Source: a phage. From it: 64,000 nucleotides of DNA. The notes under the pieces were generated by a model. That model worked only from the letters and a program-made list of their open reading frames with translations, ran no database searches and had not been told where the DNA came from. Location: assembly GCA_018093385.1 (NCBI GenBank), contig GCA_018093385.1_4808.1, one strand, 5' to 3'. Both the position numbers and the translations under genes were made by a program. This document shows, in pieces, positions 1,046 to 25,572 of this stretch. Numbering within the stretch: the stretch's first letter is position 1; every line of letters starts with the position of its first letter.

Positions 1046-3379
1046 TTATTTCGCTGATTTCAGCGCGGCTATCTCTGCCTCTAGTGATTCAACCTTTTTC
1101 ATCAACTCCTGCACCACGTGCATCGTGTCAAGAAGCATTGGAGTTGTGTCTAGTTGTTTTTGTTCAACCTCTACGCCTTCGCTCGGATAGAATTTCACCG
1201 TTTTTACATACAACGGGTCAATAATCTCTGCTTGTTGAGCGATGACACCCCTTCTTACCCTTTCCTTTTCATCATTGTTGTAAATAAATGTCACATATTC
1301 CAACGATGAAAGGTTGCTCCATGCTTTTTCAACCGTTCCTGGCTGTATGTCATGCTTCAAATTCTCATCAGAGATGGCATTCTTTTGAAGAGTATAAAAG
1401 CTATCTGATCCAAGAATTGATACAGAGAAAAACACATCATGAGAGTTAGGCTGTATGTTCATCCTTGTCTGGTACTGCGCATTATCATCTCCAACGACGA
1501 GCCAAGTGCCCTGCGCAAAACTTCCGTTATTGTTGTGGATCAAACCGTGGTGAAGCGTTGTGGCATAACCTGTATCAACCTGTTGACCGCCGCTAAAAAG
1601 ACTGTTGAAAGCATAGTTTTGACCCATTGACTGTCTCACCGTTGCATAGGTGCCGATTCTTGTTCCAGTCTCACTCCAAGACATTAAGCTTCCATATCTC
1701 GCGGCGAATCTGTCGCTGCTAAGAGTTCCTGCATCATCAAATGCAAGGTCTTTAGTCACCCCTTTTGTTTTATTGTACACAGACAGTATTGCATAATAAA
1801 ATCCATCCATGTATGCATCGCATCGCAATCCGGCATCAGCTTCAACAACAGTACCAATTTTGTATTGTGCCCTTACTTGCCCTGAAGACCCCTTAACCCC
1901 AGAGCCTGGTCGAACAGAATCCGCATTGATAACTGACCATTGCGTATTCGCGGCAACAAAGCCACCAGATGCACGAATCACCCAAACACCGACAAAGTTG
2001 CGCGGCACGATTTCAGCCGCTGATCTTCCGTATACAGGGCTTGATCGAGAAGCGTCAAAGTTTGTTTGTATGAATCTTGAACCAGAACCTGCTGCTGCTG
2101 GAGAGTCCCCAGAAGTGATCGACTGAAAAGCGCCATTAGTCGCCACCTGACTTGGCGCAGAAGCCAACGTGACCATTGTGCGCGGCGCGGAGTAAGTTAT
2201 ATTTGGTGCACCTGACTCAGAAACGACTCCATTTGATGATGGATTGCCTCCATCACCTCGACCGAACAGGGCCTGAATAGAACCCGTCTGCACGCCGTTT
2301 CGGTCCGGCACACGAAATGTTGTCGTTCCGTTACCTAAAGAGTATTTACCGCGTTTCGCTGGGTCCGCTAACCAATCTGCATCTGCAATAGGTGAAAGCA
2401 TTTGCGCATACGCCCAAAGTTCAGGCCAGTCAGCGCGGTTTAACAACTGCCCATCAGCAACGACTTCATACGGTTGAATATAAGCACGGCTGTCGCGTAA
2501 GTGGAAGTCACCGACGCCATAGTTCATAACGCCGTTCATACTTGGTCCAACGGTGCCTGTGTTTACTAAGTTCTCAACCCAACGCTTGGTCGCGGCATCA
2601 TGATCGTTTACTGGGTCACCAGCAAGCGGTGTTGCACCTTGTGGACGAATATTCAACCATGCTTGCGCATTGTCGGCTGACCCTGTGCCGCCCATAGAAG
2701 TCGGAACGATGTTTTGATCAGCGACTGTGCCAAATCCAAAAGCGGACTTCATACCCTGAATGGTAGTTTGGCCTGTGCCGCCGTTGGCGACTGGGATTAT
2801 GCTTGACTCGGAATAAATCATGACCCAAGGAGACCACGTGCTATTTTGAGCGTTGAATCTTCTTTGGTAAGTATTGTTAATGGAATATGATGTGTATTTT
2901 TGAATGCAACTTTCGGTCGATACTCCTGTTTGCAACACCTCTAAGACTCCTGCTTGTTCAACAGGATAGTTCAATCCAAAAGAGGCGGCGCCATCAGAGT
3001 TCTGATAATATTGCCCAAACCAGCTGCCGGTAAGAGCATTAAGATTCATGCCGGAAGGAACAGTGCCAAAATTTCGCAAGGTATTGGTCAAAGTCGCAGC
3101 AGTTGTTCGAATGGAAAGCATGTCACCAGCCGCCCATGCACGCGCTGCAGTTCCTTCCTGCGCACGCTGCACGGTTAGCACGTTTCCAACTACGGCTGTT
3201 ACTGTGACGATTTCAAATTGGAGGCCTGTTGCAGCGTCGACGATTGTCGCCACTACACGCTCGTTCGCGGCCAAGGTCGGAAAGCCCGACCCTGAGCGGA
3301 TTGTGATTGTGGTGTCTGAAGTCGTCGTTGGCTGGGCAAGCGCGACCTCAAAGTTGTTTTTGAATATTAGCCTTGGCAT
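1046..3379 (-). CDS. tail fibre/tailspike protein with C-terminal intramolecular chaperone (peptidase S74-like) domain
   Basis: 777 aa; C-terminal region SDENLKHDIQP...GVIAQQAEIIDPLYV...LEAEIAALK resembles auto-cleaving chaperone domains of phage fibres/endosialidases; Gly/Ser/Thr-rich central part. Confidence 0.6.
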   Translation of the reverse strand: MPRLIFKNNFEVALAQPTTTSDTTITIRSGSGFPTLAANERVVATIVDAATGLQFEIVTVTAVVGNVLTVQRAQEGTAARAWAAGDMLSIRTTAATLTNTLRNFGTVPSGMNLNALTGSWFGQYYQNSDGAASFGLNYPVEQAGVLEVLQTGVSTESCIQKYTSYSINNTYQRRFNAQNSTWSPWVMIYSESSIIPVANGGTGQTTIQGMKSAFGFGTVADQNIVPTSMGGTGSADNAQAWLNIRPQGATPLAGDPVNDHDAATKRWVENLVNTGTVGPSMNGVMNYGVGDFHLRDSRAYIQPYEVVADGQLLNRADWPELWAYAQMLSPIADADWLADPAKRGKYSLGNGTTTFRVPDRNGVQTGSIQALFGRGDGGNPSSNGVVSESGAPNITYSAPRTMVTLASAPSQVATNGAFQSITSGDSPAAAGSGSRFIQTNFDASRSSPVYGRSAAEIVPRNFVGVWVIRASGGFVAANTQWSVINADSVRPGSGVKGSSGQVRAQYKIGTVVEADAGLRCDAYMDGFYYAILSVYNKTKGVTKDLAFDDAGTLSSDRFAARYGSLMSWSETGTRIGTYATVRQSMGQNYAFNSLFSGGQQVDTGYATTLHHGLIHNNNGSFAQGTWLVVGDDNAQYQTRMNIQPNSHDVFFSVSILGSDSFYTLQKNAISDENLKHDIQPGTVEKAWSNLSSLEYVTFIYNNDEKERVRRGVIAQQAEIIDPLYVKTVKFYPSEGVEVEQKQLDTTPMLLDTMHVVQELMKKVESLEAEIAALKSAK

Positions 3380-3417
3380 TTTACGGTCCTCGTTTTGTCG
3401 ACAACCGTATTATAACC

Positions 3418-3759
3418 TTAATTTCTTTTGAGAGGAATATGACGGTGGCTGCCATTATTTGGTTTAATAATGAGCATAAAAACGATTAGAAAGATGATGG
3501 CTGATATACTTAATTCAATCAGCGCGGCTTGAGATATAGATTGATCTTCATGATACTGCTTTTGCATTTCTGCTTTCTTCTGAGCGCAAACTTCAGGTGA
3601 TATGTAATCGCCTTTTGAGTTGCCATAATAAATTTCGCCATTCTCAGAAATAAGCCTGCCGCAAATATCCGTTTCAGCCTGTGCGCTTGACATCATAATA
3701 ACAGTTCCGATGATAGCGGCGATAGTCCAGATTAACAGTTGTGATAAAGTGTTGTTCAT
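3418..3759 (-). CDS. small membrane protein (likely start at internal Met, MNNTLSQ...)
   Basis: Strong RBS AAGAGG 5 nt upstream of ATG at 3759; N-terminal hydrophobic segment plus C-terminal hydrophobic segment; track ORF extends to 3849. Confidence 0.45.
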   Translation of the reverse strand: MNNTLSQLLIWTIAAIIGTVIMMSSAQAETDICGRLISENGEIYYGNSKGDYISPEVCAQKKAEMQKQYHEDQSISQAALIELSISAIIFLIVFMLIIKPNNGSHRHIPLKRN

Positions 3760-17498: not shown

Positions 17499-19037
17499 GT
17501 GATCAGTCAATCTCGTTATATTAAAATTGTATCAGGGGTCGGAGCAGGCGCGGCTGTTGCAGTTCGCAAACTGTCGCTTCGCATCATGACTTCCAATACA
17601 GTTCTGCCGCCAGGCATTGTAGCAGAATTTTCAACTGCTGATGCCGTTGGATCATATTTTGGTTTTTCTTCCGAAGAATACAAGCGCGCAGCACTGTATT
17701 TTGGATTCATCAGCAAGCAAATCAACTCGCCTGATTCAATCAGCTTTTCTCGCGTTGTATCCACGGCGATTCCTGCAATGGTTATCGGCGACACTGAGCC
17801 TAAAACGCTTGCTACTTTCCAGGCATTCACTGGCGCTATCTTAAGCATCACTTATGACGGCACAGACTACCTGACTGACGCCATCAACCTTTCAGCGGCA
17901 ACAAGTCTTGCCAACGTAGCGGAACTCTTGGAAACGGCAATCAACACCAAGTTTGCAGCAGAAGGTGGCACGTCGGTGCCTGCACTTGCTGATGCGGAAG
18001 TGTATTGGAATGCCAACACCCAGCAGTTCACTTTGGAAGCCGCTCCGTCGACCGCTGGTGCTGGAAACCTTTCGATTAACGTCACAGGTCAACCGACAGA
18101 CCCATCTCAGGCGCTTGGTTGGACGACTACTGGCACCGTTACGGTTGCTGGACAGGGTGTAGCAAGTCCGGTAGAAGCCATCGCGGCATCTGTGGAGATT
18201 TCCAACAACTTTGGCTCATTCCTTTTCGCTGGAGCAGACCGAACGCTGGAAGAAATCACAGCCGTTGCAGCTTGGACTCACTCGCAGAACAACATGTACA
18301 TGTATCTGTTCTCGACTGCATTCGCCAACATCGGCTCATACTATACCGCGTTGAAAGGTTACTCAGGCGTTGGTATGATGATCCGTGCAACTAACCTCGC
18401 GAATGATTACATCGACCAGGCACCTGCTGAAATTCTTGCGGCGACAAACTATAACACTGTAAATGCAACTCAAAACTATATGTATTATCAGTTTGAAACG
18501 CGAAATGTAACCGTATCGACTGATTCACGCGCAGATACTGCTGATCAAAACCGTGCAAACTATATCGGTGCGACTCAGCAAGCTGGTCAAACTCTCGCGT
18601 TCTTCCAGCGTGGTGTTCTGATGGGCGGGTCTACCGCAGCAGTTGACATGAACACTTATGCCAACGAGATGTGGCTTAAATCTGCTATCACTTCTCAGCT
18701 GTTCAGCATGTTCTTGAATCTTGGTCGCGTGCCTGCAAACGAAGAAGGCAAAGCGACTGTCCAAGCCATGATTCAAGTTGCTGTTGACAATGCGAAGGTT
18801 AACGGCACCATCTCTGTCGGTAAGGCGCTGACGGAAATTCAGAAACAGTACATCACGCAAACCTCCGGTGACAACACTGCTTGGCGGCAGGTTGAGACTA
18901 TCGGTTATTGGTTGACTGTCGATTTTGACACTGAAACCACTTCCGATAACCGCACCGAATACTATGCAACATACACGCTAATCTACTCTAAAGATGATGC
19001 TGTGCGTCGCGTTGAAGGTCGTGACGTTCTTATTTAA
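17499..19037 (+). CDS. tail sheath protein
   Basis: 512 aa ORF directly upstream of tube gene; RBS AAGAGGA with GTG start; size and order typical of contractile tails. Confidence 0.55.
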   Translation: MISQSRYIKIVSGVGAGAAVAVRKLSLRIMTSNTVLPPGIVAEFSTADAVGSYFGFSSEEYKRAALYFGFISKQINSPDSISFSRVVSTAIPAMVIGDTEPKTLATFQAFTGAILSITYDGTDYLTDAINLSAATSLANVAELLETAINTKFAAEGGTSVPALADAEVYWNANTQQFTLEAAPSTAGAGNLSINVTGQPTDPSQALGWTTTGTVTVAGQGVASPVEAIAASVEISNNFGSFLFAGADRTLEEITAVAAWTHSQNNMYMYLFSTAFANIGSYYTALKGYSGVGMMIRATNLANDYIDQAPAEILAATNYNTVNATQNYMYYQFETRNVTVSTDSRADTADQNRANYIGATQQAGQTLAFFQRGVLMGGSTAAVDMNTYANEMWLKSAITSQLFSMFLNLGRVPANEEGKATVQAMIQVAVDNAKVNGTISVGKALTEIQKQYITQTSGDNTAWRQVETIGYWLTVDFDTETTSDNRTEYYATYTLIYSKDDAVRRVEGRDVLI

Positions 19038-19084
19038 ATAATTGCCGCCGTAACTGGCGGCCATCTCTCTGAGAGGAATCTGTA

Positions 19085-19552
19085 ATGATTAACGTTTCCG
19101 GTTTTGGCGCTTCGATTCGTTTGGTAGCATCAAACACTTTTCCTAATGGTGTGACACTTTCTGATTTTGCAGATGATGCTGATCCGATTGACGCGCCGGA
19201 CCTGCAAATCTCTGAGGCTGCAATGGGCCTTAACGGTGACTTAGTAGTGTGGAACCGTGCAAACCCGCTTGAAGTAGGTGTGAACATCATCCCTACTTCT
19301 GAAAGTGATGTCAACTTGGACGTTCTTGCAGCTGCAAACCGCGTAGGCAAGCGCAAGAACTCCGCAAAAGATGTGATCACACTTGTGCTGACTTATCCTT
19401 CTGGAATGGTTATCACGCTAAACAAAGGCACCTTGACAACTGGTTCCGTAATTCCTGGCATCCAGTCTCAAGGTCGTGTGAAAACACGTCAATATCGCTT
19501 CAAGTTTGAGAACGTAGTCAAAACTGGCGTGAGCAACCAAGAGATTTTATAA
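19085..19552 (+). CDS. tail tube protein
   Basis: 155 aa immediately after sheath; paralog of 20503-21000. Confidence 0.5.
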   Translation: MINVSGFGASIRLVASNTFPNGVTLSDFADDADPIDAPDLQISEAAMGLNGDLVVWNRANPLEVGVNIIPTSESDVNLDVLAAANRVGKRKNSAKDVITLVLTYPSGMVITLNKGTLTTGSVIPGIQSQGRVKTRQYRFKFENVVKTGVSNQEIL

Positions 19553-19881
19553 TGTATCAAATACCACTTGACAGCGTACCTAACCAGAATATCAGCTTTA
19601 ACGTTGACGGTGCATATTGGCAGTTGCACATTTTTGCCGCTATCGAGCACATGTGTGCCGACGTATATCGCAATGGTGAACTTTTGATTCAAGGGGTGCG
19701 CTGTTTTGGTGGTATCCCAATGGTGCCTTATAAGTATCTCATGATTGGGTACGGTAATTTCATTTTCGACAGCGTACCTGATTATGAAAGTTTTAACTCT
19801 GGCGGCTGTAATCTATATTACATGTCAGAATCTGAGTTGGCTGAATTCCAGGCCACTGCTGAAGCGGAGTTTGCAATTTGA
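19552..19881 (+). CDS. hypothetical protein
   Basis: ORF in track. Confidence 0.4.
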   Translation: MYQIPLDSVPNQNISFNVDGAYWQLHIFAAIEHMCADVYRNGELLIQGVRCFGGIPMVPYKYLMIGYGNFIFDSVPDYESFNSGGCNLYYMSESELAEFQATAEAEFAI

Positions 19882-20234
19882 CAACTCTAACCATTGAAGT
19901 GAACGAAAATAATGACCTTTTTCTACCTGATGGAAGAAACTTAAATATTCTTTCAGGAGAAAAAGCGATGGTGCAAGTAATCAAGGCCGCGCATCAGATG
20001 CGACTTGGTGAAGACTTGTACGATATAGAAAACGGGGTCGATTATTTGGGGACCGTTTTCAAGTCGCCCGTTGACGAAGACGGTGCGCGAAAGTCGATTG
20101 CAGATGCTATTCTGAAGAAAGCAGACGTTGCCGGAATCGACTCATTGACTGTCACCATCCAAAACGGTATCCTTGGATTCACTGCAGAAGTGGTGACTAT
20201 TTATGGCGAACGTATAAAGGTGAGTAATCAATAA
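19878..20234 (+). CDS. hypothetical protein
   Basis: ORF in track, probable TTG start. Confidence 0.4.
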   Translation: MTTLTIEVNENNDLFLPDGRNLNILSGEKAMVQVIKAAHQMRLGEDLYDIENGVDYLGTVFKSPVDEDGARKSIADAILKKADVAGIDSLTVTIQNGILGFTAEVVTIYGERIKVSNQ

Positions 20235-20500
20235 TGGCACAAGTAATTCATTTTGCAAATGGCGTCATGAAATTTGGCGAAAAATTTGAAGACGCATCAG
20301 AGCTGTTTAATAAGAAGGTTGAGCCTGTTACAGAAATCAAAGAGCAGGTCGAAGAAAAGTCCGTTGAACAAAAACTCGATTTTGATTCCATGAGCGTTTC
20401 AGAATTGAAGTCTTACGCCAAAGAAAATGGCATCGACATCAAGGGTCTTTCTTATAAGGATGAAATTCTTGCTGCAGTTAAATCTGCATCTGCGGAGTAA
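20234..20500 (+). CDS. hypothetical protein with C-terminal HeH/Rho-N-like motif
   Basis: SVSELKSYAKENGIDIKGLSYKDEILAAV. Confidence 0.45.
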   Translation: MAQVIHFANGVMKFGEKFEDASELFNKKVEPVTEIKEQVEEKSVEQKLDFDSMSVSELKSYAKENGIDIKGLSYKDEILAAVKSASAE

Positions 20501-20502
20501 AC

Positions 20503-21000
20503 ATGGTCAATATTAGTGGATTTGGCACAAGCATTAGAATTGTCGCTCTTCAATCTTTTCCTGTTGGGCTGAATATCAGTTCTTTGTCTGATGACCAGGA
20601 TTCGCTAATTATTGAGGAAGTTGAATCAGTAGGTTATCAACTTACTTATGACGGCGGCATTTGCATATACGACAAAGCCGCCGTCGTTCGCGTATCCATT
20701 GCGGTCATTCCAAACACTGAAGATGACATAAATCTTAAGCTTTTATTATCTGCCCGTAAAGGTGGATTCAAGTGGTTGCCAATTCAGGATGTGACATCGA
20801 TGCTCATTACATATCCTGACGGTGGAAGGGTGGCATTCTCTAACGGAACGATAATCAGCGGTCCGCTTGGTGACTCCATAGAGCAATCAGGCCGTCGCAA
20901 GACAAACCGATACACATTTGTGTTTGCCAGCTACGGTGGCGCACAGAGCACGTCTCAAGTTGCCAAGGGCGTGGTGCAGAGCATATTGGGGTCCATTTAA
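20503..21000 (+). CDS. tail tube-like paralog
   Basis: N-terminus MVNISGFGTSIRIVA parallels MINVSGFGASIRLVA of 19085 gene; similar length. Confidence 0.5.
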   Translation: MVNISGFGTSIRIVALQSFPVGLNISSLSDDQDSLIIEEVESVGYQLTYDGGICIYDKAAVVRVSIAVIPNTEDDINLKLLLSARKGGFKWLPIQDVTSMLITYPDGGRVAFSNGTIISGPLGDSIEQSGRRKTNRYTFVFASYGGAQSTSQVAKGVVQSILGSI

Positions 21001-21533
21001 TGGCTATCGATTTACTGTCATATAGTCTATCAAACAGAAGCTTCACGATAAAGAGCTTCAACCTTGGAGAAGTATCCACGCTTGGATGGGCCATAGTCAA
21101 CGTCAAAATAAGACTCCAAGCGAAGATATTCAAAAACCAAAGGGAAGACGGCAGCTATATTGTCGATGGCAGAGTAAAGATGCCGCGAATACTCACTGTC
21201 ACCGTGATAGCTCAGACGAAAAGCGCATCAGATGCAATAGCTAAGATGTTGCAAAACAGGTCGACTATATACACAATTAATTCCCGTGGTTTAATATTCG
21301 AACGTATGGTGCTGCAAAATAACAACTTCAGCCAGGACGCTGACAATATAACGTCTCAGCCCATACAATTGGTCTTCCATGAGATATTAACACAGCAGGA
21401 TGTGTCTATTCAAACAGCGCAGGCAGGCGACTCAACAGTAATAGAGCGCGGCATTGCATACATAAAAGAAACTTCTGCCAGCGTCACTGGCGTCGCTACA
21501 AAGGTGATGAATGGTATCAAGGGGATGTTCTGA
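21000..21533 (+). CDS. hypothetical tail protein
   Basis: ORF in track. Confidence 0.4.
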   Translation: MAIDLLSYSLSNRSFTIKSFNLGEVSTLGWAIVNVKIRLQAKIFKNQREDGSYIVDGRVKMPRILTVTVIAQTKSASDAIAKMLQNRSTIYTINSRGLIFERMVLQNNNFSQDADNITSQPIQLVFHEILTQQDVSIQTAQAGDSTVIERGIAYIKETSASVTGVATKVMNGIKGMF

Positions 21534-22093
21534 TGGACTTCGTTTCGATTCTGCTTTCTGGTCAATCTTTGACCATAACGAATGAGTCAACAGGTCTTCC
21601 TGTCTGGACAAGGCTTTCACCTGTTTCTGCAGAAATAACATCCCCAGCAGAAACAACTCAATTCCCTCTTGCTGGTACAGCCATGCAGGTTGTCGAAGTA
21701 TCAAGCACGTCATCAGTAAGCAATTTACAGGCTGCAAAGGTTGTAATGCCAGCCCATATGGCGTTAAACGTAATTTGCAATGACCAGTCTACAATTGAAA
21801 ATATCATAAATTCATTTGATGATGACGAAGTCACATTTTCAATAACTTCACGAAGCATCATTGCCAGTAAAATGTCGATGTCCGACGTTGAAATAACCCA
21901 GTCAGAAGAAAACTTGAATGGAGTCTCAATAGTAATAACCTTCGAGCAAACGTCATTTAGCATTCAAGGAAGCTTCGACCCTAAACAATCTGCAGACGAA
22001 TCATCAAATGGTGTTGCTATTAAAGAACCAGTCAGTTTGACTACAACTGTGAGTTCGTTATATAATAAAATAAAATCAACAGTAGGAATATAA
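21533..22093 (+). CDS. hypothetical tail protein
   Basis: ORF in track. Confidence 0.4.
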   Translation: MDFVSILLSGQSLTITNESTGLPVWTRLSPVSAEITSPAETTQFPLAGTAMQVVEVSSTSSVSNLQAAKVVMPAHMALNVICNDQSTIENIINSFDDDEVTFSITSRSIIASKMSMSDVEITQSEENLNGVSIVITFEQTSFSIQGSFDPKQSADESSNGVAIKEPVSLTTTVSSLYNKIKSTVGI

Positions 22094-22094
22094 A

Positions 22095-22511
22095 ATGAAG
22101 ATCACCAACAAACAAACTGGTCGTACAGTAGAAATTAAAATCAGCAAAATGACTGCGATGGAAGGATGGAATATTCAGCGTCGCTTTGTCGAATTTGCAA
22201 TGTCGAAAGACCCTGCGTTCCGTTCAGAGTATACGATGGAAGTGTTGAGCTTCGCAAAAGTCGAGCTTGATGTGGGCCAAGAAATCCCATTAAGCACTGG
22301 TGCACTAATTGACAACCATCTTGGTGACTGGGAAAACCTTAAAGAAGTCTTCGAAGCAGTCCTCATGGAGAACGGTATAAACCCAGATACTCACGCCGAG
22401 CGTGAAGGCTACTGGGAACAAGCTGGCGGCGAAATGGCTGCAGCATTCATCGGCGAATCGATGCGATTAATCGCGCCATTCCTCAGCGGCGAGACTCCAA
22501 ACAAGGGGTAA
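22095..22511 (+). CDS. putative tail assembly chaperone
   Basis: Position immediately upstream of tape measure gene. Confidence 0.4.
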   Translation: MKITNKQTGRTVEIKISKMTAMEGWNIQRRFVEFAMSKDPAFRSEYTMEVLSFAKVELDVGQEIPLSTGALIDNHLGDWENLKEVFEAVLMENGINPDTHAEREGYWEQAGGEMAAAFIGESMRLIAPFLSGETPNKG

Positions 22512-22514
22512 ACT

Positions 22515-24695
22515 GTGTCTGACTCATTAGAAAAATTTGTGCTTCAATATACGGTGGACTTGAAAGAGTCCATCAATCGTCTTGAGCAATTGCAAGATAA
22601 AGTTGATCAGACAAACAAAAAGGCGAAATCCGCTGGAAAAGATTTCTCTGGAGCATTCAAAGATGTTTTTGGCGAGCTAAAGCCGCTTACTGGTGAGCTA
22701 GGGTCAATTGACGGAATACTTGCGCGGCTGACATATCGTTTTGCCGCGCTTGTTCCTGTGGTAGCAGGATTGGCTGTCGTCGTCAAATCCATCGTTGATG
22801 TTCGAAAAGAATACGAAGCGCAAAGAAAGCTTGGTTTTGAAGCCGGACTGTCTCCAATGGGTGTCGAACAACTACAACGACAGTTGAATGAAAGTTCAGG
22901 TGGCATCCTTGGCGCACAGGGGTCGCGCGATTTAATCAGCAAAGCTTCTAATCTGGCATTCAATGCATACACCAACCCCGATGTGATGAACAAGGACAAC
23001 TTGTTGTTGAACAAGATGGGGACAAGTCCTTTCAACAGTAACGGCGGCATCAAAGACACGAATCAGCTGCTTGATGAAATTGGAACAAAGCTGAGAAGTG
23101 TTAATGAGCAAACCGCTCGTGCCATTGGTGCTTTGGCAGGATTCACGGCTGATGAAGTCCGCGCCCTTCGTGAGCGCAACCAGTCTGTGAAAGAAAGCAC
23201 CCGTATAAGCGACGAAGAAACCGCGAAGCTGCAAAGACAGCAAGCTGCTCTTGAGACTATACGAAATAGTATGGGGCAAATTCAAGAAGATTGGCGGCGT
23301 ATTGAGTTGGTAATTGGTGAAAATGTCATGCCTGCATTCTCGACTCTTGTCAGCAAAACTGCTGATACAGTCGAAGGATTCCAGATGATGTTTCAGAGAA
23401 TGTCTGACGGATGGAGCGAATTTGTCGACAACTTCATCGCTGACTTGAAACATCCGTTTGACAAGCAGGCCGCTGTCAACGAACGTCACGAAAGAGCGGT
23501 TGACCGATGGATCACCCAAATGGCTGATGGCGATGTTAAACGCCAAAGGAATCAAGAACAGAACGCTGCTGAACAACGTTCTGCACAGGCTCTTTTTACT
23601 CGTGATATAAATCTTTTTTCAAGTGCTGTGTCAACCTTTGCTGGCGTGATTGATGAGCGTCAAGCTTGGGCGGCATGGGCAGGTGAAATCGGGCGCAGCG
23701 CAGGGCAATCCGCGATGCCTGGAACACCAGCATTGAATACTGGCGCGACCGTAGGGAATAATCTTGGGTCAGGGAATCCGACAGCATATGACTCAATATA
23801 TGAGGAAGCTTCAAAACGCTATGGCATACCTGTAGCGATGATGAAGGCTGTAACTGAAGTCGAATCTGGATTCAATCCAAATGCTGTGAGCGGAGCAGGC
23901 GCGACTGGTTTGATGCAAATCATGCCTTCTAACTTCAAGGGTCTTGGAATAACAGATGGTAATGATCCTCGACAAAACATTATGGGCGGCGCTCAACTTT
24001 TGAAAGAGTATCTTAACGCCGCCAACGGCGATTGGAATCTTGCGCTGACGATGTATCACGGCGGCTACGACCGAAGCGGCTGGGGCAAGAACACACGCGC
24101 GTATCCTGGAAAGGTGATGGCCGCTCTCGACCGACAATCCAATGGCGAGTATGCCACGGCAGCGCCGCAAGGTGCACCAGTTACTCCAGTACTTAGCGGT
24201 AGCGGAGCGGAAGCGCCAAAGGGCCGTTATGCACCAGTACAAGGTCAATCGCGCCAAACGGTGCAATACAGGCAATTGCAAGAAGCCATTGCAGGATACC
24301 TGAACGTACCAGTTGAGCAGTTGATGCAGGGACAAGTCAACAAAGGTGATATTGACTTTGCTCAAACTTACCTTAAGCTTGGCACGCAAAGGGATTATAT
24401 TAAAAACATGCAACTGGCTTCAACTCCAGGTGTAAGACCGAACATTCAAGCCGAAGCTATGAAAAACGCTCGTCTTGCTGCATTCCAACTTGAAGCATTT
24501 CAGAAATACGGCGGCGACCTTTCCGCGAATAGTCGACCTGGTGGGCGTGATATTACTATGGGTCAGAAAAACGTTGTCATCAACGTCAACGGCGCTCAAG
24601 ACCCACGCAGCACGGCATTCGAAACGAAACGAGTGCTTGAACAAGATGATATAAACGACATAAACAACCTTACTGCTACACCTTTGAAGTGGTGA
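22515..24695 (+). CDS. tape measure protein with soluble lytic transglycosylase domain
   Basis: 726 aa; SLT motif EVESGFNPNAVSGAGATGLMQIMP ... YHGGY; helical N-terminal part. Confidence 0.75.
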   Translation: MSDSLEKFVLQYTVDLKESINRLEQLQDKVDQTNKKAKSAGKDFSGAFKDVFGELKPLTGELGSIDGILARLTYRFAALVPVVAGLAVVVKSIVDVRKEYEAQRKLGFEAGLSPMGVEQLQRQLNESSGGILGAQGSRDLISKASNLAFNAYTNPDVMNKDNLLLNKMGTSPFNSNGGIKDTNQLLDEIGTKLRSVNEQTARAIGALAGFTADEVRALRERNQSVKESTRISDEETAKLQRQQAALETIRNSMGQIQEDWRRIELVIGENVMPAFSTLVSKTADTVEGFQMMFQRMSDGWSEFVDNFIADLKHPFDKQAAVNERHERAVDRWITQMADGDVKRQRNQEQNAAEQRSAQALFTRDINLFSSAVSTFAGVIDERQAWAAWAGEIGRSAGQSAMPGTPALNTGATVGNNLGSGNPTAYDSIYEEASKRYGIPVAMMKAVTEVESGFNPNAVSGAGATGLMQIMPSNFKGLGITDGNDPRQNIMGGAQLLKEYLNAANGDWNLALTMYHGGYDRSGWGKNTRAYPGKVMAALDRQSNGEYATAAPQGAPVTPVLSGSGAEAPKGRYAPVQGQSRQTVQYRQLQEAIAGYLNVPVEQLMQGQVNKGDIDFAQTYLKLGTQRDYIKNMQLASTPGVRPNIQAEAMKNARLAAFQLEAFQKYGGDLSANSRPGGRDITMGQKNVVINVNGAQDPRSTAFETKRVLEQDDINDINNLTATPLKW

Positions 24696-24699
24696 TAAT

Positions 24700-25572
24700 T
24701 TGAAAAAGAGAATCCTTAAAGTCACCTTATCTATGCCGGATGGCACAAGCCAAGTGCTTGATGAAGGATTGATGCTTAGATGCCGAATCAAAAAGGCAGC
24801 ACTTTCCGTGCAAAATAAGGCCACAATCGAAGTCGCAGGATTGACAGGGTACTTGAGAGAGTACCTGCTTTCCAACTTCACCGCATTCAACAAACGTCTG
24901 CGTGATCAAGGCCAATTGGCGGCGAATTATGTCAACGTAACAATTGAAGCTGGATATAGAGAAGGCAACGTTGTTAGTAGCAACTTAGTCTACAAGGGGC
25001 AAGTCACAACGGTCGAGATAACAGCGCCGCCGCCGAACATCGTCATACGCATCACTTGCTACACCAACCAGATAAACAGGACTAAGTTTATCACTCAAGC
25101 TGCACCGTCAAACCCAACATTCAAAGAGTTTGTGGAGTGGTCGGCAAAGCAAATGGATATTGATACTGTTATATGCGATACTTCGATTAACAATCAGCGC
25201 CTTGTTAACCCAGGCCGCACAACATATGTTGCAGCCGCCTTGCTGCTTGAGATTCAGAACTATCAAAGGAACTCTATTGCGGCATATATCGATGATGATA
25301 CGCTCATCGTCAAGGATAAAGACAAAATTCTGAATCCAGAACAGATAACGGTGATTGAGGAATTTGTCGGAATACCGATGTGGAACGAGTGGGGCGCTGA
25401 CTTCACTTGCATGTATAACGCGGATTTGAAGCTTGCCCAAGGTGTGAAATTCAAATCAGTCTTAAACCCAAGCTTGAACGACACCACATTTGTCATCATG
25501 CAACTTGAATATGATTTAGCAAGTCGTGATGATATATTTACGGTGACGGGCGGCGTTGCACCATCGGCCTGA
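24700..25572 (+). CDS. putative baseplate/distal tail protein
   Basis: ORF after tape measure; probable TTG start. Confidence 0.4.
   Translation: MKKRILKVTLSMPDGTSQVLDEGLMLRCRIKKAALSVQNKATIEVAGLTGYLREYLLSNFTAFNKRLRDQGQLAANYVNVTIEAGYREGNVVSSNLVYKGQVTTVEITAPPPNIVIRITCYTNQINRTKFITQAAPSNPTFKEFVEWSAKQMDIDTVICDTSINNQRLVNPGRTTYVAAALLLEIQNYQRNSIAAYIDDDTLIVKDKDKILNPEQITVIEEFVGIPMWNEWGADFTCMYNADLKLAQGVKFKSVLNPSLNDTTFVIMQLEYDLASRDDIFTVTGGVAPSA

Follow-up and report, generated by a model that had tools for sequence, protein, structure and literature searches.

An ancient tail tube paralog pair with separate predicted roles in the contractile tail of a Wifcevirus phage

In other contractile injection systems, tube-fold proteins of the baseplate, such as T4 gp48 and gp54 and the pyocin and Afp/PVC tube initiators, follow a common plan, in which a tube-like baseplate ring joins the hub to the polymerizing tube and starts tube assembly. 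The closest described systems to the locus studied here are the contractile tails of the Pseudomonas phages E217 (PDB 8fuv, 8eon and 8env; Li et al., Nat Commun 2023, PMC10329688) and Pa193 (PDB 9b42 and 9b45; Commun Biol 2024, PMC11456595). In E217, gp36, named tail tube-B, resembles the tube protein gp32 (RMSD 3.6 Å) and forms a hexameric ring that is concentric with gp32 and carries three gp37/gp38 heterodimers; the baseplate cap as a whole is made of tube-fold proteins, and it remains on the tube tip after contraction (PMC10329688). The Pa193 tail contains 204 copies of the tube protein gp33. Coaxial with this tube lies a hexameric ring of gp37, and the C-termini of gp37 and gp38, which point outward, are bound by the sheath initiator gp35 (PMC11456595). 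The arrangement of tube and tube-B is, therefore, already known from cryo-EM structures of related phages.

We analyzed a window of 64,000 nucleotides of phage DNA (GenBank assembly GCA_018093385.1, contig GCA_018093385.1_4808.1), which is that of a Wifcevirus, an E. coli myophage to which the Pseudomonas Pbunavirus is a distant relative. Its tail module (Table 1) follows E217 in the order of sheath, tube, adaptor, initiator, small protein, tube-B, two ripcords, gp39-like protein, tape measure and hub. The two phages differ in host and genus (E. coli or Shigella and Wifcevirus for the window phage), in the small protein, which has 143 residues, is Pro/Ala/Glu-rich and has a basic K/T-rich end in E217 but has 88 residues and a SAP/HeH end in the window, and in the tape measure, which is shorter in the window (726 aa). 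The same differences hold for Pa193.

Table 1. Predicted features of the tail module in the window.
Feature	Coordinates	Strand	Match or equivalent
Tail sheath, 512 aa	17499..19037	+	Pfam DUF3383/E217_gp31_N 6.6e-119; PHROG tail sheath
GC-rich hairpin GCCGCC-GTAACT-GGCGGC	19044..19061	+	Sheath-tube spacer; without U-run after it
Major tail tube protein, 155 aa	19085..19552	+	Ortholog of E217 gp32, Pa193 gp33
Baseplate adaptor "helical bundle", 109 aa	19552..19881	+	Pa193 gp34, E217 gp33; Pam3 gp18-like
Sheath initiator, gp25-like, 118 aa	19878..20234	+	Pa193 gp35, E217 gp34
Gene X, 88 aa, 9.8 kDa, acidic	20234..20500	+	Positional equivalent of E217 gp35, Pa193 gp36
Baseplate tube/tail tube-B, 165 aa	20503..21000	+	Ortholog of E217 gp36, Pa193 gp37
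Ripcord-1, 177 aa	21000..21533	+	Ortholog of E217 gp37, Pa193 gp38
Ripcord-2, 186 aa	21533..22093	+	Ortholog of E217 gp38, Pa193 gp39
138-aa protein, 5' of tape measure gene	22095..22511	+	E217 gp39 position; PHROG 4627, unknown function
Tape measure/lytic tail protein, transglycosylase domain, 726 aa	22515..24695	+	Homologs annotated lytic tail protein or SLT
Baseplate hub, 290 aa	24700..25572	+	Ortholog of E217 gp41; Pfam PF22759 E217_GP41 3.4e-118

Could the resemblance between the 155-aa and 165-aa proteins, which the original prediction had described as near-identical N-termini, be confined to the first 15 residues? The window ORFs encode both quoted N-termini exactly. Eleven of these 15 residues are identical, and the pairwise alignment that had been proposed as a check extended the similarity over the full length, with 47/143 identities (33%), 61% positives and 0 gaps by BLASTP (E 2e-32). 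Both proteins belong to Pfam PF22764 (E217_Gp32), the tail tube family of PB1-like myophages (gathering score 27 bits); the 155-aa protein scored 203.8 bits over model positions 1–143 of 144 and the 165-aa protein 180.4 bits over positions 2–143. An HMM scan of all six-frame ORFs in the window found these two family members only. The two proteins are paralogs, and the locus is a clear case of a baseplate–tube junction built by duplication of a tube gene in which the paralogy is still visible in the sequence, a point made earlier from the E217 and Pa193 structures. The T4, pyocin and Afp/PVC proteins can be likened to this lineage in design logic. The predicted initiator ring here is a recognizable sequence paralog of the tube, at 33% identity.

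Each paralog has its own ortholog among the solved proteins. The best PDB match of the 155-aa protein was the Pa193 tube (9b42_M, "gp33 Tail tube"; 1.4e-48, residues 1–150), with E217 gp32 (8fuv_T) at 4.4e-42, whereas its match to the baseplate tube reached only 2.5e-25. For the 165-aa protein, the best PDB match was the Pa193 baseplate tube (9b45_M, "gp37 Baseplate tube"; 8e-53, residues 1–162), with E217 gp36 (8env_I/8eon) at 2.2e-49, compared with 1.4e-21 to the tube. Bit scores separated the two in the same way: 167 bits to Pa193 gp33 versus 92 bits to Pa193 gp37 for the 155-aa protein, and 181.7 bits to Pa193 gp37 versus 80.2 bits to Pa193 gp33 for the 165-aa protein. The 155-aa protein is 54% identical to E217 gp32, groups with the tubes and shares 44–55% identity with the tubes of four named genera; the 165-aa protein is 51% identical to E217 gp36, groups with tube-B and shares 48–58% identity with the tube-B of four named genera. 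A predicted structure of the 165-aa protein, built from an alignment of the two window paralogs only, had a pLDDT of 31, too low for use. Gene position and architecture agree with this assignment. The tube gene lies directly downstream of the sheath gene and encodes a protein of ~150 aa without a C-terminal extension. The tube-B gene immediately precedes the ripcord pair and follows the genes for the sheath initiator and the small protein, and every tube-B examined, including that of E217, carries a C-terminal extension of ~12–15 residues with a GAQ...Q..L pattern that is absent from the tubes.

The duplication is ancient and not recent, because orthologs across genera are 43–95% identical whereas paralogs within a genome are only 25–39% identical, with the tube and tube-B groups falling cleanly apart. 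Searching with tblastn located 737 places in 380 phage records and, therefore, both copies are present in nearly every record. Furthermore, the order of the eleven genes is identical in the nine other lineages examined and was seen in Pbunavirus, Myosmarvirus, Bcepfunavirus (two phages), a Pantoea phage Kyle contig and three more uncultured contigs. More distantly, Bordetella phage vB_BaM-IFTN1 and cyanophage Pam3 (the latter via the Pfam name Pam3_gp18) are minimal myophages with a DUF3383-type sheath, whose sheath and tube families are the same. The tubes of IFTN1 and the window share 46% identity; the IFTN1 records contain one tblastn place, which is of the tube type (174 bits with the tube HMM versus 93 bits with the tube-B HMM), and no tube-B was recognizable in them at the tblastn/HMM sensitivity used.

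Virion proteomics had been suggested as a further check, and published mass spectrometry (MS) of CsCl-purified virions of a near-identical phage, vB_Eco4M-7, detected both paralogs, the tube strongly and tube-B weakly. The tube of vB_Eco4M-7, which is 100% identical to the window protein, gave 6 peptides, 52% coverage and a score of 283; its tube-B, which is 99.4% identical, gave 3 peptides and a score of 4.5. In the published MS of phage ECML-117, tube-B was not detected. The weak tube-B signal would fit six copies in each virion, although it does not measure stoichiometry. The vB_Eco4M-7 sheath protein (99.2% identical to the window sheath) was also detected, as was the tape measure, with 30 peptides.

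These data argue strongly against a recent tandem duplication of the tube gene whose copies are interchangeable or co-polymerize into a mixed tube. Such an event would account for the shared family, the like lengths and the very similar N-termini of the two proteins; however, we find it highly improbable, as it is contradicted by the grouping of the orthologs, by the extension found in all tube-B orthologs and in none of the tubes, by the E217/Pa193 tube-B ortholog being seen as one baseplate ring only, and by MS scores that lie ~60-fold apart. On the other hand, the first of the two possibilities raised in the original prediction, two distinct tube-like components, is borne out by the solved ortholog structures, which are those of a major tail tube and a single-ring baseplate tube. 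In our judgment, the two proteins very probably diverged by duplication long ago and now serve the contractile tail in different ways, one as the tube and the other as the baseplate tube (tail tube-B).

How might the two paralogs work together? Ring stoichiometry, baseplate position and assembly order can be projected by homology at 51–54% identity. The 155-aa protein would be present in the virion in high copy number, its hexameric rings stacking within the sheath (the Pa193 homolog makes 34 such rings, from 204 copies). The 165-aa protein would form only one hexameric ring, which would share the axis of the tube and lie between the tube and a gp37/gp38-type ring. This latter ring, which would have three-fold symmetry and three molecules each of ripcord-1 and ripcord-2, would support the tube-B ring on one side and would itself rest on the trimeric hub and tail tip; the opposite side of the tube-B ring would offer a tube-like surface for the first true tube ring to stack on. 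The C-terminal extension of tube-B, which the tube protein lacks, would reach outward to the baseplate adaptors, and the genes between the paralogs would supply the helical-bundle adaptor, the sheath initiator, which would nucleate sheath polymerization, and a small acidic protein.

The three small ORFs that had been noted between the paralogs are present and encode proteins of 109, 118 and 88 aa. The first product matched solved adaptors (PDB 9b45_A, 1.1e-26; 8env_G, 2.4e-26) and Pfam PF22479 (2.5e-16). The second matched solved initiators (PDB 9b45_G, 6.1e-23; 8env_H, 1.8e-21) as well as PHROG 120 (8e-21), which identifies it as a gp25-like sheath initiator of the contractile injection systems. 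Its hmmscan score against PF10934 was 13.4 bits, under the gathering score of 32.9; the precomputed Pfam annotation assigns PF10934 to all 26 of its homologs. The initiator was also present in the published MS of vB_Eco4M-7, with a score of 163. The PHROG 120 profile spans 303 positions, the window initiator aligning to 54–171 and E217 gp35 to 190–303. A fusion or programmed frameshift between the initiator and gene X was considered and is unsupported, as 26/26 homologs of the window initiator are 116–125 aa long and the reading-frame relation of the two genes varies across genera.

The original prediction had seen a HeH motif in one of the three ORFs, and Pfam SAP (PF02037) matched residues 49–82 of the third product, that of gene X (E 8e-6; 25.8 bits, over the gathering threshold of 23.9). 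A domain of this DNA-binding type is unusual in a tail module and, together with the presence of three small genes, it would favor the second possibility raised in the original prediction, namely that the duplication captured or flanks mobile cargo, the three genes being inserted morons or accessory genes. That possibility fails on several counts and has very little probability: two of the three genes encode conserved core baseplate proteins with solved orthologs, the nine other lineages examined have all three positions filled and their order unchanged, the junctions overlap or leave gaps of ≤3 nt, which is the pattern of a coupled operon, and the GC content is not atypical. The sole lineage-specific part of the intervening genes is the SAP/HeH domain at the end of gene X, which is confined to Wifcevirus and the uncultured phages most closely related to it. 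Some contractile tails also use tube-like folds at their proximal end, and the 165-aa protein might on this ground be a tube terminator at the head-proximal end of the tube and not at the baseplate end. This is most unlikely: the maps into which orthologs of the 165-aa protein have been built are those of the baseplate (8eon/8env and 9b45) and not those of the neck, its gene sits among baseplate genes, and tail completion/Neck1 has a gene of its own upstream of the sheath gene.

Beyond the SAP/HeH domain, gene X comprises a conserved N-terminal motif, which is common to nine lineages, and a disordered linker; full-length homologs among sequenced phages occur in Wifcevirus only. It had no sequence match in the PDB. 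Single-sequence AF2 placed a helix-extended-helix at residues 55–87 (helices 55–64 and 75–87, pLDDT >90), and the top Foldseek matches of this segment were the SAP domains of CDNF/MANF and the Rho N-terminus (rmsd 1.0–1.3 Å), at E values of at least 0.9 that are not significant, the domain being so short. In published MS of CsCl-purified virions, gene X gave 10 peptides, 65% coverage and a score of 2929 in vB_Eco4M-7 and 3 peptides in ECML-117. Its positional equivalent in Pa193, gp36, is absent from the text and models of the structural report (PMC11456595). Gene X is prominent in purified virions yet structurally unaccounted for in the Pbunavirus models. A speculative and rather unlikely reading is that it might be an abundant, largely disordered virion component that was missed by the E217 and Pa193 atomic models, with a conserved N-terminal beta-hairpin motif as its anchor and a nucleic-acid-binding-type end. 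In that reading, Wifcevirus would carry the SAP/HeH domain at this end, and most relatives would carry a K/T/A-rich basic tail. Gene X might contact DNA or the cell surface during ejection, or might act in tail assembly.

A second paralog pair, overlooked in the original prediction, is formed by the adjoining 177-aa and 186-aa genes. Ripcord-1 matched PDB 9b45_S (1.1e-20) and 8eon_A (2.9e-20) and Pfam Gp38_E217 and Dit_like, and ripcord-2 matched PDB 9b45_V (1.3e-27) and 8eon_D (1.6e-27) and Pfam Gp38_E217 (1.8e-71). With a pairwise identity of 21% (E 2e-4), they are distant paralogs. When the profiles of the tube/tube-B and ripcord families were compared with each other, no signal emerged (probability 0.4%); the shared fold of the two families is taken from the E217 paper only (PMC10329688). 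In Burkholderia phage Maja, the ripcord-2 homolog and the next gene have been joined in an annotated "tape measure chaperone frameshift product". We did not adopt this product, since the ortholog of ripcord-2 has been modelled as part of the baseplate and the window genes do not overlap. The next gene in the window encodes the 138-aa protein, which had no Pfam match and whose position is kept in all relatives compared; judging from this position only, it may be the tape-measure chaperone. The transglycosylase domain of the tape measure is assigned on the basis of PF01464 on neighbors' products.

Public Wifcevirus and Pbunavirus records mislabel both paralogs and the ripcord genes as "tail fiber protein" or "hypothetical protein". 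The proper labels along this module are tail tube, baseplate adaptor, sheath initiator, baseplate tube (tail tube-B), ripcord-1 and ripcord-2.

The expression signals of the tube and tube-B genes are alike in their Shine-Dalgarno energies (-6.0 and -6.1 kcal/mol, respectively), and promoter-like or terminator-like sites showed no excess over shuffled sequence. The likeness of codon usage to the capsid and sheath genes was 0.68 for the tube versus 0.49 for tube-B, a modest difference that is weak evidence. The sheath–tube spacers of E217, MTx, BcepF1 and Maja each contain a hairpin, as the window does, and these hairpins are stronger and of other sequence (z -3.5 to -4.7).

The 155-aa and 165-aa proteins, here called tube and tube-B, proved to be separated tail tube paralogs, confirming the original prediction. 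Their ORFs, coordinates, and N-terminal sequences were as described, and the N-termini are indeed near-identical (11 of the first 15 residues). The similarity peaks in this segment and is not confined to it: BLASTP aligned the two proteins over their full length (143 residues, gap-free, 33% identity, 61% positives, E 2e-32). Furthermore, each protein matched Pfam PF22764 (E217_Gp32) and PHROG 2420 end to end, and an HMM scan of all six-frame ORFs in the window found no other PF22764-type member. Three small ORFs (109, 118, and 88 aa) separate the pair, and the last carries the predicted HeH motif in a SAP/HeH domain.

A PDB sequence search distinguished the roles of the two proteins. Tube matched Pa193 gp33 ("Tail tube", PDB 9b42, 1.4e-48) and E217 gp32 (8fuv, 4.4e-42), with weaker matches, about 1e-25, to baseplate-tube chains; tube-B matched Pa193 gp37 ("Baseplate tube", PDB 9b45, 8e-53) and E217 gp36 (8eon/8env, 2.2e-49), with weaker matches, 1e-21 to 1e-16, to tube chains. 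Judged by these matches, the assignments of tube as the tail tube and tube-B as the baseplate tube are reciprocal and unambiguous. At the DNA level, the tail module (17499-25572) is 98% identical to that of the Escherichia phages VerenaGrendelmeier_Bas101, vB_EcoM_SP13, and F13, ~98% to vB_Eco4M-7, and 97% to vB_EcoM_WFC, all of the genus Wifcevirus. The BASEL paper (10.1101/2024.09.12.612763) describes this genus as distantly related to Pbunavirus, a genus of Pseudomonas phages, and records that Wifcevirus structural genes were annotated with the help of a Pbunavirus cryo-EM structure. The tube/tube-B arrangement is already known as a structurally characterised trait of PB1-like and Wifcevirus tails.

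In E217, gp36, named "tail tube-B", is the platform for three gp37/gp38 heterodimers, and these relay the symmetry to the trimeric gp41 hub and gp43 tip beneath; the cap remains on the tube tip after contraction (PMC10329688). In Pa193, the tube consists of 204 subunits in 34 hexameric rings, gp37 forms a hexameric ring coaxial with it, and the sheath initiator binds the outward C-termini of gp37 and gp38 (PMC11456595). By homology, a tip trimer, a hub trimer, and a three-fold ring of three ripcord-1 and three ripcord-2 subunits would form the cap, and a tube-B hexamer atop it would restore six-fold symmetry and expose a tube-like face. Tube hexamers would then polymerise on this face, surrounding the tape measure protein, and the sheath initiator, anchored on the C-termini that tube-B and ripcord point outward, would begin the sheath. 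The N-terminal ~15 residues, strongly conserved between the paralogs, may lie in a ring-to-ring interface that the two must share.

Features of the tail module and their equivalents (comparison loci in their own numbering; MS, vB_Eco4M-7 counterpart: peptides, coverage, score; PMC7048862)
Feature	Position	Strand	Description	MS
Stem-loop, GC-rich	19044-19061		Directly 3' of sheath stop codon; z -2.2	
Tube	19085-19552	+	155 aa	_49: 6, 52%, 283
Adaptor	19552-19881		109 aa; Pa193 gp34 "helical bundle" and E217 gp33 adaptor, 1e-26; Pfam Pam3_gp18	
Sheath initiator	19878-20234		118 aa; Pa193 gp35 and E217 gp34 sheath initiators, 6e-23	_51: 6, 46%, 163
Gene X	20234-20500	+	88 aa; position conserved, between sheath initiator and tube-B	_52: 10, 65%, 2929
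Tube-B	20503-21000	+	165 aa	_53: 3, 25%, 4.5
Ripcord-1	21000-21533	+	177 aa, pI 9.6; PDB match to ripcord-1; Pfam Gp38_E217, PHROG 2580	_54: 3, 16%, 9.5
Ripcord-2	21533-22093	+	186 aa, pI 4.2; PDB match to ripcord-2; Pfam Gp38_E217, PHROG 2580	
Hub	24700-25572		290 aa; PF22759, 3.4e-118	
Gene X equivalents, named phages	E217 (L002) 3060-3491; MTx (L003) 3247-3501; BcepF1 (L005) 3284-3499; Maja (L006) 3263-3499			
Gene X equivalents, uncultured contigs	L007 2857-3177; L008 2857-3213; L009 2857-3270; L010 2853-3122			
Equivalent spacers	E217 1878-1935; MTx 2042-2111; BcepF1 2073-2149; Maja 2048-2125		Stem-loop z -3.5 to -4.7	

Could the intervening genes be cargo? The module has an eleven-gene order that includes, in succession, sheath, tube, adaptor, initiator, gene X, tube-B, ripcord-1, ripcord-2, a ~140-aa gene, and a tape measure with a transglycosylase domain. 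E217 (Pbunavirus), Serratia phage MTx (Myosmarvirus), and, from Bcepfunavirus, the Burkholderia phages BcepF1 and Maja all show the identical order, as do four further contigs, one of which has a Pantoea phage Kyle protein. In the window's module, the junctions overlap or leave gaps of at most 3 nt. This shared order and tight packing rule out cargo and indicate that the intervening genes are core baseplate genes. Consequently, of the two readings originally offered, "two distinct tube-like components" stands and a duplication with intervening cargo does not. Ripcord-1 and ripcord-2 are a second adjacent paralog pair, more diverged than tube/tube-B (21% identity, E 2e-4), and their opposite charges (see the table) fit the obligate heterodimer modelled in E217 and Pa193.

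The sheath initiator covers the middle (54-171) of the 303-position PHROG 120 profile ("baseplate wedge subunit"), and E217 gp35, in the gene X position, matches its end (190-303). These split matches hint that some database members may fuse initiator and gene-X-type genes; the 26 homologs of the window's initiator, at 116-125 aa each, included no such fusion.

Gene X itself had no PDB sequence match. Its SAP domain scored 25.8 bits (Pfam gathering score 23.9), and AlphaFold2 modelled a confident helix-extended-helix at the C-terminus. The proteins in the same position elsewhere vary in length, from 71 aa (BcepF1.107) through 84 aa (MTx_044) to 143 aa (E217 gp35). They have in common only an N-terminal motif, [IV]-x-x-[FY]-[AEQ]-x-G-[VT]-[ML], with an acidic, low-complexity, disordered linker after it. 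The window shares its SAP/HeH C-terminus with L007 and L008, the two uncultured relatives closest to it; in E217, BcepF1, Maja, L009, and L010, a K/T/A-rich basic tail takes its place. Among sequenced phages, full-length homologs were found in Wifcevirus only.

Are both paralogs incorporated into virions? CsCl-purified vB_Eco4M-7 and ECML-117 were examined by LC-MS/MS by Necel et al. (PMC7048862); the window's proteins and those of vB_Eco4M-7 share 99.1-100% identity, and published and calculated masses agree. Both tube and tube-B were detected in vB_Eco4M-7 (283 vs. 4.5); ECML-117 yielded tube, adaptor, initiator, and gene X but no tube-B. The scores, which are not stoichiometries, agree with many copies of tube and few of tube-B. 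Codon usage differs modestly in the same direction, that of tube being closer to the usage of the capsid and sheath genes (similarity 0.68) than that of tube-B (0.49); the Shine-Dalgarno strengths are equal. Gene X was prominent in the purified Wifcevirus particles: its score, for an identical protein in vB_Eco4M-7, was the fourth-highest there, yet its Pbunavirus equivalent is mentioned in neither cryo-EM paper (E217, PMC10329688; Pa193, PMC11456595), a minor point that leaves the verdict unaffected.

We aligned tube and tube-B proteins from five genera with the lone tube of Bordetella phage IFTN1, which served as the outgroup for tree drawing, so that only the unrooted tube/tube-B separation is readable. 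The sequences split cleanly in two. Identity between orthologs is 44-58% across named genera (43-95% with metagenomic relatives), and between paralogs 25-39%; every tube-B has a C-terminal extension of ~12-15 residues (GAQ...Q..L) that tubes lack. Furthermore, tblastn of the phage collection found 737 places in 380 records, so nearly all records carry both copies. These results indicate that the duplication is older than the split of these genera.

Bordetella phage vB_BaM-IFTN1 (39.8 kb) is a smaller relative with the same sheath and tube families, a single tube-family gene (one place by tblastn across the entire record, one HMM match in OM293950 7271-15723), and, from that gene on, the order tube, 141-aa gene, tape measure. 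Its protein groups with the tubes (46% identity to the window's tube vs. 28% to tube-B; 174 vs. 93 bits with the respective HMMs). IFTN1 may represent the pre-duplication state or a lineage whose tube-B diverged past recognition.

Mis-annotation is widespread in public records. "Tail fiber protein" is applied to tube, tube-B, and both ripcord genes in Bas101 (PQ850631) and E217 (NC_042079), and to tube, gene X, and ripcord-2 in vB_Eco4M-7 (MN176217); even the Pfam entry PF22764 bears the title "Tail fiber protein gp32". The Maja record (MT708549) presents the ripcord-2 homolog and the gene after it as a tape-measure chaperone with a frameshift product.

The sole sizeable non-coding gap of the module is the sheath-tube spacer (19038-19084). 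In each of the five genera covered, a GC-rich stem-loop directly follows the sheath stop codon here; its sequence differs from genus to genus and lacks a U-run. It may stabilise an mRNA 3' end, mark a processing site, or terminate transcription in part.
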